Origin: Escherichia phage Turkey3
Sequence record: PQ471515.1
Reading direction: 5' to 3' (one strand)
DNA length: 64,000 nucleotides
A program made the position numbers and the translations under genes. Of this stretch, positions 1-64,000 are shown in pieces (the first letter of the stretch is position 1; each line of letters starts with the position of its first letter). Under the pieces are notes generated by a model, which worked only from the letters and a program-made list of their open reading frames with translations, was not told the origin of the DNA and did not search any database.

Positions 1-34
1 TTTAAGAATTAATAAAGTTGGGAGTAGTTTATAT

Positions 35-478
35 TTGGAAGTAAAAGCTGGTTTTGCAGGTCAGTACAATGATAAAATCAAAGAAGAAGTTAAGGGAAGT
101 GAAGATGCTTTCATTGAGGTTTGTGCAACAGTTGGTTCAAATCCAATTTCAGTATCACCTTTAATGCGAAATGAAAATTCAGAATTTGATTCCAGTTTTG
201 AAGGTTATTTGTGGTATAATTATGGTGATGATTATTTTATATATCAGAATTCCAAAACGGATTACAGTGAAGAAGGTATAAAATTCATTGATCCTTACAA
301 TGAAGCAGAAGTATTTCAGACATCCCTAATATACAATACAAATCAAATGAAGTATCTTATGTTGTTTAGTACAATGCATTTGAATCCATTGAAAGATAAT
401 TTAAAATTTTTCATTCGTTTAGAATTAGTTGATATTGCTTATGATCTTTTAATGCAAGGATATAGTTATGAAGTATAA
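35..478 (+). CDS. FQ-S array paralog (hypothetical protein)
   Basis: 147-aa ORF; motif NEAEVFQTSLIYN; C-terminus LMQGYSYEV identical to next gene. Confidence 0.6.
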   Translation: MEVKAGFAGQYNDKIKEEVKGSEDAFIEVCATVGSNPISVSPLMRNENSEFDSSFEGYLWYNYGDDYFIYQNSKTDYSEEGIKFIDPYNEAEVFQTSLIYNTNQMKYLMLFSTMHLNPLKDNLKFFIRLELVDIAYDLLMQGYSYEV

Positions 479-495
479 AATGCTGTATACAAAAG
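451..495 (+). repeat. gene-junction repeat copy 1 (AATGCAAGGATATAGTTATGAAGTATAAAATGCT...)
   Basis: near-identical sequence recurs at 1035-1078 and 1379-1409, spanning stop/start junctions of adjacent paralogs. Confidence 0.7.
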
Positions 496-554
496 ATATG
501 ATTTATGTTGAATTAGAAGTCAATGACGATGTATCCATCAATAGGTAATAATAT

Positions 555-1061
555 ATGAATGAGATAGAATTATTAGCACACAAGATTAGTACAGTAATGC
601 TTATGCTCAAGAATAATCATTCTATGCATAAGTACATTTTTATAGGTGATTTACGCATAGAAGATAGATATGATAAATTATCGTTTATGTTTAAAGATGA
701 AAGTAATGCAAAAGTTTGTTTTGCAGCATTTACCCAAGGCAATCCAGAACAAGCATCTCCTGTTATATACGAAAATAGTGAAGGGTATTTGTGGGTCAAC
801 ACAAACGATTATTTCTTTTATGTTTTGAAACAAGATGATGAAGTAGAAGCACGAATTGATTTAATTGATATTAGTTCAGATTGTAGTGCTGAATTATTTC
901 AGAAATCGTTATTATACAGTCCTCGTCAAATACATTATCTAAAGTTATTCAGTTCATTGTACGCGAATCCTTTAATTAAGGGTTTTAAATTTTATATCAA
1001 AATTCCGCACCTTTCAAACGTTTATGATATGTTAATGCAAGGATATAGTTATGAAGTATAA
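555..1061 (+). CDS. FQ-S array paralog
   Basis: 168-aa ORF; motif SAELFQKSLLYS; same C-terminal LMQGYSYEV as 35-478. Confidence 0.6.
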   Translation: MNEIELLAHKISTVMLMLKNNHSMHKYIFIGDLRIEDRYDKLSFMFKDESNAKVCFAAFTQGNPEQASPVIYENSEGYLWVNTNDYFFYVLKQDDEVEARIDLIDISSDCSAELFQKSLLYSPRQIHYLKLFSSLYANPLIKGFKFYIKIPHLSNVYDMLMQGYSYEV

Positions 1062-1078
1062 AATGCTTTATACATTAA
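1035..1078 (+). repeat. gene-junction repeat copy 2
   Basis: matches 451-495 and 1379-1409. Confidence 0.7.
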
Positions 1079-1362
1079 CATTAATATATGTAGAATTAGA
1101 ATCCGATTCAGATGCATGGAATTTGGTTAAAGAGGTCGATACCAATCAATGGTACATGGCAAATTTAGACGCACAGGTTGTTACGGATTATTTTATAGAT
1201 TTTAATACATTATCTGAAGAAGAATTTTTCCAAATGCAATTGGTGGTTGACATGTACGGACATGACATGGTAACATTAAGAAATATACAGAAAGTAGTTA
1301 ATGAATTCCAAAGCAAGAAAGATTATGAGGTAGGAGCGTATTATGACATCGACGTACAGTGA
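1051..1362 (+). CDS. FQ-S array paralog (short form)
   Basis: 103 aa; MKYKMLYTL...SEEEFFQMQLVV; tandem duplicate of 1359-1709. Confidence 0.6.
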   Translation: MKYKMLYTLTLIYVELESDSDAWNLVKEVDTNQWYMANLDAQVVTDYFIDFNTLSEEEFFQMQLVVDMYGHDMVTLRNIQKVVNEFQSKKDYEVGAYYDIDVQ

Positions 1363-1709
1363 AAGCAATGAGTACAATAGTTATGAAGTATAAAATGCTT
1401 TATACATTATCAGGGATATATGTAGAATTAGAACCCGATTATCCAGATGGATGGAATTTTATTAAACGCTCCGAAAGAAATACATGGCACATGGCACATT
1501 TGGATAATGACGTAATATTAGACAATTTTGTGGATTTTAATACATTATCAGAAGAAGAATTCTTCCAAATGCAATGTGTGCTTGACACAAAAGGATTTGA
1601 TGTGCTATTATTAAAGAATATACAAAAAGCTGTTAACGAATTAATATCCAATGACGAGTTAGGCAAAGTGAGGCTGTTCCATGATCTCGAAGTACCGTAC
1701 CAGCAATGA
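1359..1709 (+). CDS. FQ-S array paralog (short form)
   Basis: 116 aa; ...MKYKMLYTL...SEEEFFQMQCVL; tandem duplicate of 1051-1362. Confidence 0.6.
   Translation: MKAMSTIVMKYKMLYTLSGIYVELEPDYPDGWNFIKRSERNTWHMAHLDNDVILDNFVDFNTLSEEEFFQMQCVLDTKGFDVLLLKNIQKAVNELISNDELGKVRLFHDLEVPYQQ
1379..1409 (+). repeat. gene-junction repeat copy 3
   Basis: AGTTATGAAGTATAAAATGCTTTATACATTA matches copies 1 and 2. Confidence 0.7.
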
Positions 1710-61882: not shown

Positions 61883-62049
61883 AAGAAGTAATTGGTTACA
61901 AATGTAAAAATTGTGGCAAAGATAAGGGTAAGCATTCAGTACAAGGGATGGCTTGTCCAAATCCAGGACGTGGTAATTTCAGAGGGTTCAGTACTGAAAA
62001 GTCTTACGAACCGGATCATACCAAACCTGTAATGGGTTATAAATTATGA
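61879..62049 (+). CDS. zinc-ribbon small protein (56 aa)
   Basis: CKNC...ACPNPG; ATGA overlaps on both sides; not in track. Confidence 0.35.
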   Translation: MKEVIGYKCKNCGKDKGKHSVQGMACPNPGRGNFRGFSTEKSYEPDHTKPVMGYKL

Positions 62050-62405
62050 GTGATTATGTGGCATTTCTTCATCGCTTTGGTGAAGCTCAAGAAAAACACA
62101 TTATCCGTATGCCAGCTTATGGTGAGAAAGACTGGTACAAAAGTACTATCAGCGTAGGTGCATTTCGTGACCGTGAAGCTGAATTCTTTCTTGGTAAGCA
62201 ACACGAACGTGAAGTTCTTTGTTCACTGTGGCGTTTAGATGAATGGGATAGTGAAAATTCCAGAACGGCTGAATCAATGCTGGCAGTTGTTGGTATTGCG
62301 AACTATCAGCACCCATATGATCTGTTACCTACGTTTACCCATGCTTCTTTGTTTGACTTTTACAAAGAAGTAGGGTATGATTATAAAAAGAAACGTTACA
62401 TTTAA
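62046..62405 (+). CDS. hypothetical protein
   Basis: 119-aa ORF. Confidence 0.5.
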   Translation: MSDYVAFLHRFGEAQEKHIIRMPAYGEKDWYKSTISVGAFRDREAEFFLGKQHEREVLCSLWRLDEWDSENSRTAESMLAVVGIANYQHPYDLLPTFTHASLFDFYKEVGYDYKKKRYI

Positions 62406-62450
62406 TATCAGTACTGTTATAGTGGCAGTACTTTTTAATTGGAGATTACA

Positions 62451-63065
62451 ATGACTACATCTGAAAAGTACTGGTGGATTATGGGCCATCCTAAATTCAT
62501 CAACGGAGATATGGTTCCCCCAAGGATTGATATCGAACCACATGATGTGTGTCCAATCACAAACCGCATTGAATCATTTAAAGCTCTGAATACAAAGACA
62601 CAATTTTGGGTAGAATTCATCTCACCTATGTACGTTGAGCAAGATGATGAATGGGTACAAGCACATGATTATGAGTTAGATTGCGGTGGTGATACTTATG
62701 ATGAGGCAATTGATGAACTATACAAAAATGTGCTAAACACTTATGGTGATTACACCCAACAAGAAGCAGACGATACGTTTAATAAGGTCCATGCAGTCAT
62801 TTCTACATCATCAATTTACAATTCAACAAAAACAATTTGGGAAGAACGTCACGGGTGGAGTTCATCTGTAATTGATGCTGAAGCCAAAGAAACAATTCTG
62901 GAAGACATAAAAAATATAAAAAGTACAATAGAAGCCTTGCGTGAATTTATAAAGTCTTGTACAATAGAACAACAGAAAGAGGCAAAGATGCATTTGGAGA
63001 GTGAAGAATGTAAACTTTGGGTTCTAGAGAAATCATTTGAAAAGGGTATAGACTTAGACTTATGA
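62451..63065 (+). CDS. hypothetical protein
   Basis: GGAG RBS then ATG 62451; track start 62439 is TTG. Confidence 0.5.
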   Translation: MTTSEKYWWIMGHPKFINGDMVPPRIDIEPHDVCPITNRIESFKALNTKTQFWVEFISPMYVEQDDEWVQAHDYELDCGGDTYDEAIDELYKNVLNTYGDYTQQEADDTFNKVHAVISTSSIYNSTKTIWEERHGWSSSVIDAEAKETILEDIKNIKSTIEALREFIKSCTIEQQKEAKMHLESEECKLWVLEKSFEKGIDLDL

Positions 63066-63430
63066 ATCGTAAACTTGAGAAACTAATTGAAGAATTGCGA
63101 CGGATGCCACCAATCGAGCAAGTGGGGAGCTACAAACGTTATCGTGTGATTGCTCGTGCACTAGATAAGAAAGGTCGTGTATTGGCAACACGTACTAATT
63201 CTTACACACATACTCACCCAGTACAGAAAGGTTTTGCAATCCGTGCTGGTCGTCCACAAGGTGAATTTCTTCATGCTGAAATCTCATGTTTGCTGGCTTC
63301 TCGTGCTGAAGTTCATACTTTGTTGATTGCACGGGTAAGTAAAGATGGTATTCCAGTCCCTGCCAAGCCTTGTGAGATTTGTACGTTGGCAATTATGGAA
63401 TATGGGGTCAAAGAAATTATTCACACATGA
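63062..63430 (+). CDS. cytidine/deoxycytidylate deaminase-fold protein (tentative)
   Basis: HAEISCLL and PCEICT zinc-binding motifs. Confidence 0.5.
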   Translation: MNRKLEKLIEELRRMPPIEQVGSYKRYRVIARALDKKGRVLATRTNSYTHTHPVQKGFAIRAGRPQGEFLHAEISCLLASRAEVHTLLIARVSKDGIPVPAKPCEICTLAIMEYGVKEIIHT

Positions 63431-63648
63431 AAAAAATTGAACGCTACAAAAACCATACAGTTGTGGCTGAAGATGATATATTTTATTATTATATTTTCAG
63501 ACCCACACACTGTTTACAAATAACGACATTTGAGAATGATAATTTCAAAGATGTCTACTTCCATATAACAGATTTAGCAAAATATTCCAGTACTGAACAC
63601 TTTTCCAATTTAGTATTTGTGTACTGTATACCAAATCATAACATGTAA
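63427..63648 (+). CDS. hypothetical small protein
   Basis: ATG 63427 overlapping previous TGA; track start 63379. Confidence 0.4.
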   Translation: MKKIERYKNHTVVAEDDIFYYYIFRPTHCLQITTFENDNFKDVYFHITDLAKYSSTEHFSNLVFVYCIPNHNM

Positions 63649-63658
63649 GGAGTCAACA

Positions 63659-64000
63659 ATGGCTAAAACTATTTCTTTAAAAAATGAAAATGTAGGACAA
63701 CGCAAAGATGGGTTCTTTGGATTCTCATGGACAACATTGTTCTTTGGTCCGTTCCCTGCATTGTTTCGTGGTGACTTTATTACGTTCATCGGTGCATTTG
63801 TAATTTACTTCATCCTCAACGCAGTGTCTTTTTGGATTGTGGGTACAATTGCAATGGTCGTGTGGGCATTTCTTTATAATAAGTACTACACTGTGAATCT
63901 CATCAAGAATGGGTATAAATTCAATGGTACACATGAAGAAAATGCTGAAGCTGCAATGGCGTTACAAATTGATCTAAACAAAAACAATACTGTAGATAAA
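63659..64000 (+). CDS. membrane protein, 3'-partial (runs off window end)
   Basis: AAGGAG RBS; open frame to window end; hydrophobic FFGPFPALF...FVIYFILNAVSFWIVGTIAMVVWAF. Confidence 0.5.
   Translation, partial: MAKTISLKNENVGQRKDGFFGFSWTTLFFGPFPALFRGDFITFIGAFVIYFILNAVSFWIVGTIAMVVWAFLYNKYYTVNLIKNGYKFNGTHEENAEAAMALQIDLNKNNTVDK

Follow-up and report, generated by a model that had tools for sequence, protein, structure and literature searches.

AGTACT, a palindrome selected at the DNA level across a clade of jumbo enterobacterial phages, and a phage gene block free of ACT

INTRODUCTION

The cyanobacterial HIP1 sequence (GCGATCGC) is a short, hyper-abundant palindrome that occurs about once per gene or more often. 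HIP1 is found inside open reading frames (ORFs), between them and in all frames, its sites are individually conserved (PMC5861425), and orphan methyltransferases are encoded in the same genome, with no settled function for the repeat (PMC4390886, PMC5861425). Here we describe the palindrome AGTACT in a 64,000-nucleotide stretch of Escherichia phage Turkey3 (sequence record PQ471515.1), referred to throughout as the window, together with a block of genes at the start of the window from which the trinucleotide ACT is missing.

Other over-represented words serve as signals. The DNA uptake sequence (DUS) of Neisseria and the uptake signal sequence (USS) of Haemophilus are short words, far over-represented genome-wide, that mark ‘self’ DNA for a protein reader. 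Chi, the signal of RecBCD and AddAB, is likewise over-represented; it identifies self and modulates a nuclease. Two further systems are related to AGTACT by sequence. The binding consensus of SlmA, which acts in E. coli nucleoid occlusion, is GTGAGTACTCAC, with AGTACT as its core, and the target of ScaI/Eco255I-type restriction-modification is AGT^ACT, the same hexamer as the phage motif.

RESULTS

AGTACT is over-represented in every reading frame and in non-coding DNA

The window is part of the genome of an Asteriusvirus, a jumbo E. coli myophage with a genome of ∼350 kb; it is 96-98% identical to EC.P1, WPEC3/5, fEgEco12 and CMSTMSU, and shows ∼83-87% identity to PBECO4 and 121Q. We used the whole genome of fEgEco12 (374,733 bp), in which the window corresponds to ∼30.5 to 94.7 kb on the plus strand, for comparison. 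fEgEco12 has direct terminal repeats of 20,993 bp (PMC13070987); one repeat copy was taken for genome-wide counts (354 kb).

AGTACT is the commonest hexamer in the window, with 194 copies, compared to 21.5, 17.3, 39 and 80 expected from Markov models of order 0, 1, 2 and 3, respectively, and the octamer CAGTACTG occurs 42 times, compared to 0.69±0.83 in dinucleotide shuffles. The original prediction, which was made by reading the sequence, had noticed this excess and had counted three copies between 20221 and 20820; we located them at 20509, 20538 and 20647. Its further statement that AGTACT recurs throughout the window holds from position 7128 on, but 1-7127 is empty of AGTACT, since the trinucleotide ACT is itself missing from 1-6792.

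The excess persists when codon usage is taken into account. In the 127 plus-strand ORFs, on which we ran two codon-aware nulls, there are 176 copies of AGTACT, compared to 45.3±5.9 after synonymous shuffling within genes (z = 22) and 22.8±4.7 after codon permutation (z = 32). The copies in the window are distributed over the three codon phases as 75/42/59, and an additional 18 lie in the 4,961 nt outside ORFs, a density equal to that of coding sequence. Codon choice is bent toward AGTACT in every frame: Ser-Thr pairs are encoded as AGT-ACT in 75 of 133 cases (19 expected), Val-Leu pairs as GTA-CTN in 81 of 153 (28.5 expected), and [K/Q/E]-Tyr-T.. contexts as xAG-TAC-T in 41 of 72 (9.2 expected).

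These results leave a negligible chance of an artefactual excess, whether through composition, through codon usage, through preference for one dipeptide or through amplification of paralogs. The window is indeed full of paralog arrays that share a D..E..FQxS motif, and a small cluster of TGTACT upstream of the window is a genuine paralog effect. However, only ∼7 plus-strand copies of AGTACT are held by the F-Q-x-S-T codons of the arrays, both nulls fall far short of the observed count, all three phases and non-coding DNA are used, and the enrichment extends to structural genes of both orientations and to four genera. The original prediction had favoured selection at the nucleic-acid level over a codon or dipeptide preference, and this view is borne out by both nulls, by all frames, by the non-coding copies and by the conservation of sites described below.

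The immediate flanks of AGTACT are also non-random and follow the rule H-AGTACT-D. C at -1 and G at +1 are found in ∼45-50% of copies in the window and in 43-52% across fEgEco12. Avoided are G at -1, with a share of 2-10%, and C at +1, with 6-8%. This symmetric preference and avoidance stretches the palindrome to 8 bp, as expected if the reader is a dimer. Beyond ±1-2 bp the flanks carry almost no information and extended palindromes are rare, and we therefore rejected a longer repeat unit or a hairpin around AGTACT. Helical phasing or clustering of AGTACT was not found in gene bodies.

With respect to the paralogs themselves, many ORFs in window positions 1-31070 belong to tandem families of 100-200 amino acids with the aligned majority consensus D..E..FQxS, and none of the 64 ORFs of that region has a Pfam match at E ≤ 0.001. 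The TGTACT cluster, at 21,000-25,000 in fEgEco12, consists of ∼28 tandem paralogous genes of 70 amino acids with TGTACT at one conserved A-V-L position; we considered this zone as the mirror image of a polar AGTAC signal diverging from a point, and rejected the idea in favour of paralog duplication.

AGTACT enrichment is a property of a phage clade

Genome-wide, fEgEco12 has 977 copies of AGTACT, 8.8x the order-1 expectation, and AGTACT is its top hexamer. The copies are found in genes of both orientations, including structural genes, at a density that is mostly ∼2-3 per kb and rises to ∼7 per kb both in the terminal repeat (21 kb) and in the adjoining early-type region. Additional genomes were compared as samples (50 kb for E. 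coli K-12). AGTACT is enriched 11.9x in 121Q, 11.4x in Klebsiella phage RaK2, 8.9x in Cronobacter phage GAP32 and 8.7x in Yersinia phage fHe-Yen9-04, and the AGTACT-rich group comprises four genera of enterobacterial RaK2-like phages, Asteriusvirus, Alcyoneusvirus, Mimasvirus and Eneladusvirus. More distant relatives are AGTACT-poor, with 0 copies versus 6 expected in XacN1 and 1 versus 8.8 expected in PA5oct, and the unrelated coliphage phi92 has 1 copy versus 15 expected. The trait is a property of the whole phage clade, not of this genome alone.

The E. coli K-12 sample contains 3 copies of AGTACT versus 4.8 expected, or 0.06 per kb, and the density on phage DNA is ∼50-100x that of the host (∼one per 300 bp versus ∼one per 16 kb). 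The comparison with the rest of the genome and with the host, proposed in the original prediction, describes a word that is enriched across fEgEco12 and ordinary in E. coli. The literature that we searched makes no mention of AGTACT abundance in these phages or of the ACT-free region.

Palindromes in general are heavily purged from fEgEco12: 25 of the 64 hexamer palindromes are missing altogether from the 354 kb, CAGCTG has 1 copy, and AGTACT is the lone palindrome that is strongly enriched. GCGC has 0 copies in fEgEco12 (∼200 expected) and none in the samples of RaK2, GAP32, fHe-Yen9-04 and 121Q; an AGTACT-rich, GCGC-free composition is thus a simple signature for spotting members of the clade in metagenomes. 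GATC is depleted, with 90 copies in the window versus ∼200 expected and 0.56x genome-wide, yet a Dam-family methyltransferase is encoded.

AGTACT sites are under purifying selection

Selection on individual sites is evident from comparisons at increasing distance. Relative to fEgEco12 (98.1% identity), 184 of 188 aligned AGTACT sites are intact (97.9%), compared to 90.7% of all hexamers (p = 7e-5); this puts their rate of change 4.4-fold below that of the average hexamer, with a turnover of four losses and seven gains. Relative to 121Q (82% identity), 32 of 49 sites are intact (65%), compared to 41% of hexamers. In nine core genes, codon-aligned among fEgEco12, GAP32 and fHe-Yen9-04 (61% amino-acid identity), GAP32 and fHe-Yen9-04 share 7 and 5 of 27 fEgEco12 positions, compared to 0.06 expected by chance, and four positions are common to all three genomes. 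AGTACT sites are under purifying selection.

A neutral molecular drive, acting through mismatch correction of the very-short-patch type or through biased gene conversion, would also use every frame and would also give the random, Poisson-like placement that is seen in gene bodies, and repair bias has been discussed for HIP1 (PMC5861425). If such a drive were responsible, we expected the words that differ from AGTACT by one mismatch to be depleted as its precursors. Instead, these neighbours are mildly enriched in fEgEco12 (1.1-2.4x expectation), a pattern that fits decay products of a selected word and does not fit the feedstock of a repair drive. The slow change of the sites, their persistence across genera, the few and balanced gains and losses between close relatives (7 versus 4) and the fixed, cross-genus positions in early promoters (see below) all argue against a neutral origin, which we consider decidedly improbable. 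The conservation of individual sites, common to HIP1 and AGTACT, speaks for selection rather than repair bias.

AGTACT occupies fixed positions in early promoters

Of the 99 copies of AGTACT in the first 15 kb of the fEgEco12 terminal repeat, 63 are intergenic, and many have a fixed place in early promoters of the sigma-70 type. The final T of one AGTACT also belongs to the -35 hexamer (AGTAC-TTGCAA), the other copy abuts the -10 element (AGTACTG-TATAAT), and the two copies are 20-22 bp apart. The layout in RaK2 early promoters, AGTAC-TTGACA, 10-11 nt, CAGTACTG-TATAAT, matches that in fEgEco12. A -10-proximal AGTACT is present in 21 promoters of the fEgEco12 terminal repeat and in 32 promoters within 20 kb of the RaK2 early region. 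Thus, the position of AGTACT relative to the -35 and -10 elements is fixed in many promoters and conserved between two genera, as is typical of operators, and the 20-22 bp peak from these promoter pairs is the one departure from Poisson-like AGTACT spacing (≤300 bp). The composite pattern is rare inside the window. One example is the pair that begins at 62410 (Table 1), whose first copy, AGTACTGTTATAGT, places AGTACTG against a -10-like hexamer, as in the early promoters of the terminal repeat.

The promoter copies bear directly on whether AGUACU might work in RNA, either as a processing or decay site, since it holds UACU, the cleavage sequence of MazF-SEA/PemK-type toxins, or as a self-pairing element. 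Enterobacterales have UACU-cleaving MazF/PemK toxins (PMC10864209), the window is rich in RNA-repair genes, and some AGTACT copies in 5′-untranslated regions (5′-UTRs) of RaK2 lie at the tip of perfect hairpins, for example GGGATTCAGTACTGAATCCC. However, many copies are located within promoters, upstream of the transcription start, which points to a function on DNA. Moreover, an RNA motif would need neither palindromic symmetry nor symmetric flanks, a cleavage site enriched in nearly all of the phage's own genes would be self-harming, and extended hairpins are found at only 2 of the 977 fEgEco12 sites. An RNA-level function is very unlikely, and it is the worst fit among the candidates that the original prediction had listed; the best fit among them is a site for a DNA-binding or DNA-modifying activity, based on the palindrome and on the conserved early-promoter positions upstream of transcription starts.

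The RaK2 early region also contains 5′-UTRs with perfect palindromes of 20-22 bp centred on AGTACT (L015 3446, 6366, 7253 and 11441), such as AAAGGGATTCAGTACTGAATCCCTG. These extended palindromes sit just upstream of the ribosome-binding site and are nearly absent in fEgEco12.

Methyltransferases and nucleases as possible readers

The phage encodes two orphan methyltransferases, a Dam-family N6-adenine enzyme, which the window carries, and a C5 cytosine enzyme from another part of the genome (Table 1). The main rival to a binding protein is that one of these two reads AGTACT. AGTACT would then be the substrate of the enzyme, as in HIP1, and the methylated state would be the functional mark. 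Such a mark could protect the phage against ScaI/Eco255I-type restriction, and it could make early promoters on newly replicated DNA behave differently from those on packaged, methylated DNA. At 63% identity to RaK2, the C5 enzyme shows the conservation of a core gene; a genome purged of 25 of 64 hexamer palindromes would need protection for ∼1,000 copies of a restriction-type palindrome; and HIP1, the closest analogue, is methylated on sub-sequences by two orphan methyltransferases (PMC4390886). We consider methylation of AGTACT possible, although on balance unlikely.

Several observations count against it. Phage phi92 has a C5 enzyme with 50% identity, yet avoids AGTACT (1 copy versus 15 expected), which weakens a link by co-occurrence but does not exclude it, since the specificity may differ. 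Over its full length, the best solved relatives of the C5 enzyme are the eukaryotic DNMT3A/3B catalytic domains (E about 1e-23), ahead of M.HhaI and M.HaeIII; this kinship would predict a short target unlike AGTACT, although it is not decisive. There is no deamination footprint: AGTATT (1.44) and AATACT (1.17) are not depleted, and neither dominates the losses. Finally, methylation alone leaves unexplained why more AGTACT sites are better. With respect to modification in bulk, all ten restriction enzymes tried on fEgEco12 virion DNA cut as predicted in silico (PMC13070987), and bulk hypermodification is therefore unlikely.

A nuclease reader, for which AGTACT would be a programmed nick or cut site in recombination-dependent replication or packaging, or a Chi-like control signal, is improbable. 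The annotation includes recombination and replication genes of the T4 type (UvsX/RecA, gp46/47-like proteins and endonuclease VII) as well as a number of HNH and GIY-YIG nucleases, and AGTACT density is highest in and beside the terminal repeats. However, the digests of fEgEco12 virion DNA gave the in silico bands with no sign of frequent breaks (PMC13070987), and the few nuclease candidates that we scanned included none that is ScaI-like; the ORFs beside the methyltransferases, examined for a nuclease, had no Pfam match. Known Chi sites are asymmetric and orientation-biased, while AGTACT is a palindrome, and authentic E. coli Chi is already at ∼12x expectation in the phage, with 12 copies in the terminal repeat, so that a second Chi-like signal is not needed.

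Chi (GCTGGTGG) occurs in the window at 30341, 38410, 46033, 50602 and 52937, 5 copies versus 0.35 expected, and in fEgEco12 there are 24 plus-strand and 12 minus-strand copies, 36 versus ∼3 expected. The twelve copies in the 21-kb terminal repeat suggest that the genome ends are protected from RecBCD.

Table 1. Coordinates of AGTACT sites, candidate genes and the ACT-free zone (window positions unless stated)
Feature	Position	Strand	Remarks
ACT-free zone	1..6792	+	no ACT on coding strand in any frame; ∼131 expected from rest of window
AGTACT-rich part	7128..63887	.	194 copies, 3.4 per kb, 42 as CAGTACTG
First two AGTACT copies, 7128 and 7214	7128..7219	.	intergenic, just right of ACT-free zone
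AGTACT pair 23 bp apart	12660..12688	+	non-coding, upstream of gene starting 12721
AGTACT pair 17 bp apart	62410..62432	+	just upstream of gene starting 62439
Orphan DNA N6-adenine methyltransferase, phage Dam family (PF05869)	31090..31614	+	E = 5e-32; candidate for AGTACT
C5 cytosine methyltransferase, fEgEco12 g455	L006 29943-30803		outside window; 286 amino acids
PIN-PhoH fusion (PhoH2 architecture)	57978..59417	+	Pfam: PIN_4 residues 4-156, PhoH residues 269-473

ACT is absent from a block of genes at the start of the window

The stretch without ACT at the start of the window (Table 1) forms the right-hand part, 6.8 kb long, of a zone that extends over 8.3 kb and ∼20 genes. In fEgEco12 the ACT-free run is 8,293 bp (29,020-37,311), and the second-longest ACT gap of that genome measures 475 bp. 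Nothing comparable is seen for any other trinucleotide, and the boundaries of the zone are sharp. The same zone is present in 121Q as a 7,511-bp ACT gap (L009 10,908-18,417) with 76-82% nucleotide identity, and no ACT-free zone was found in 100 kb of RaK2 that includes the syntenic early and array region. The zone proteins have no homologues outside Asteriusvirus, and we found no function for the genes (PHROGs ‘unknown’; no Pfam match).

The ban is specific to one strand and one word. The complement, AGT, has 187 copies in 1-6792; ACT accounts for 3% of Thr codons in the gap region at the window start, compared to 41% elsewhere; and TCT is halved, while CCT and GCT are normal. AGTACA occurs 33 times in the zone, compared to 13.4 in the synonymous-shuffle null, and it replaces AGTACT there, indicating that the pull toward the hexamer persists under the ACT ban. 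A three-base ban that is strand-specific suggests a single-stranded reader.

Our leading guess is that the ban makes the mRNA immune to an ACU-directed endoribonuclease, either the PIN-PhoH protein of the phage (Table 1) or a host abortive-infection toxin. We regard PIN-PhoH as a candidate for a sequence-directed RNase/helicase that concerns the ACT-free zone alone and has no bearing on AGTACT; it is conserved across the whole clade, and its mycobacterial PhoH2 homologue prefers 5′-AC[A/U][A/U][G/C] (PMC7390352), from which we infer a possible link to the ban. We rejected MazF-SEA/PemK, which cleaves UACU and UACG, as the cause of the ban, as ACG and TACG are kept in the zone, and we know of no E. 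coli RNase directed to ACU. Alternatively, ACT might be a primase-type trinucleotide on the DNA strand, by analogy with T4, in which primase recognises GTT/GCT.

The MazF-immune, ACA-less mRNAs are an analogue of such a ban, in that one trinucleotide is wholly absent from the sense strand in all frames. The ACA-less cases are engineered or are single genes, while here ∼20 natural genes over 8.3 kb are affected. The ACT-free block would thus be a natural whole-operon recoding against a trinucleotide, and if an RNase is behind the ban, the block reveals both the specificity of that nuclease and the genes that the phage most needs to protect.

Several other features were noted in the zone and in the rest of the window. 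Inside the zone, at 3042-3101, an intrinsic terminator (3042-3063 and a T-run) is directly followed by a near-consensus promoter (TTGACA-17-TACAAT), and the zone is therefore more than one transcription unit. At its right edge, positions 6505-6665 are non-coding and hold a G9 run (GGCCGCTGGGGGGGGGTC) and a C-rich segment with no Rfam match; Rfam and tRNA scans of the entire window gave no match. Genes for RNA repair and RNA conflict are found at 38326-41220 and 55987-59417 and encode a T4 Rnl1-type RNA ligase, a PNKP kinase-phosphatase and PIN-PhoH, and Pfam matches in the second half of the window also include Sir2, a cyclic-phosphate ‘cREC’ receiver domain and a Nudt16-like Nudix protein of the decapping type.

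DISCUSSION

A proposed double-stranded DNA site for a dimeric protein

We tentatively propose that AGTACT, preferably as CAGTACTG, is a positively selected double-stranded DNA site that is read symmetrically by a dimeric protein specific to the clade. A site of this kind is the best fit to the combination of a palindrome, symmetric flanks, selection on sites, restriction to the clade and operator-like positions. The reader would probably be a binding protein rather than a modifying enzyme, and is likely to be encoded by the phage. Given the contrast in density between phage and host, such a protein would be directed almost only to the phage chromosome, and AGTACT would act as a ‘self’ tag. In early sigma-70 promoters, the copies overlapping the -35 and -10 elements may be operators, at which binding would time or shut off early transcription.

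Several points weigh against this proposal. Our analysis pointed to no reader protein, and neighbouring ORFs gave no Pfam match. In the sequence, the footprint of a modifying enzyme would look just like that of a binder, and the phage encodes two orphan methyltransferases, of which the C5 enzyme is a conserved core gene. The spacing of AGTACT in gene bodies is Poisson-like (≤300 bp), with no phasing that would hint at cooperative arrays, and the benefit of ∼1,000 sites to a genome otherwise purged of palindromes is not apparent. Duplication of a promoter cassette inside one genome could account for part of the regularity of the promoters, although the same layout is seen again in a genus whose genome-wide identity is only ∼30%.

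The two features of the window may also be considered jointly. It is conceivable, although we think it unlikely as a whole, that AGTACT is a barcode that distinguishes phage from host DNA without base modification and doubles as a set of operators, while evolution has recoded the ACT-free block to keep ACU out of its mRNAs, which would spare them from an ACU-directed endoribonuclease acting on other transcripts. If the barcode exists, a virus would have a means of marking its chromosome that needs no base modification, for which we found no description in the literature searched. AGTACT is also relevant to how early genes are controlled in jumbo phages of the RaK2/121Q group, which are therapeutic candidates.

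Comparison with known systems

The known systems that share the AGTACT sequence differ from the phage motif in use. SlmA occurs only in enterobacteria and close relatives, in line with the hosts of the clade, and we nevertheless rejected SlmA sites: the SlmA flanks, G at -1 and C at +1, are the very ones that phage AGTACT avoids, the outer GT..AC shows no enrichment, and the SlmA-type form GAGTACTC occurs once among the 194 copies. The ScaI/Eco255I-type target is the identical hexamer, likewise a palindrome read by a dimer, but phages avoid restriction targets, and phi92, PA5oct and XacN1 do so with AGTACT, while here it is 9-fold enriched in a genome from which most other palindromes have been purged.

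The signalling words share abundance with AGTACT and differ in form. Similar to AGTACT, DUS and USS are short and far over-represented genome-wide, but they are asymmetric 9-12-mers, often paired in terminators, and are kept by transformation uptake bias; a lytic phage has no uptake step. Chi is asymmetric, read on one strand and biased in orientation, unlike the palindromic AGTACT.

HIP1 is the closest known phenomenon. AGTACT shares with HIP1 its over-representation genome-wide, its independence of reading frame, its placement within and between ORFs at one copy per gene or better, the conservation of sites beyond background and the presence of orphan methyltransferases in the same genome. 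It differs from HIP1 in that it belongs to a virus and not to a cellular chromosome, in its AT-rich, unrelated sequence, in its integration into early promoters and in the absence of periodicity at spacings ≤300 bp; the fold-excess is 9-12x for the hexamer and ∼60x for the octamer, compared to 15-300x for HIP1. The function of HIP1 has been unclear for decades, and AGTACT is an experimentally easier counterpart, since in a lytic phage the recoding of sites, promoter assays and pull-down of binders are possible within one infection cycle.

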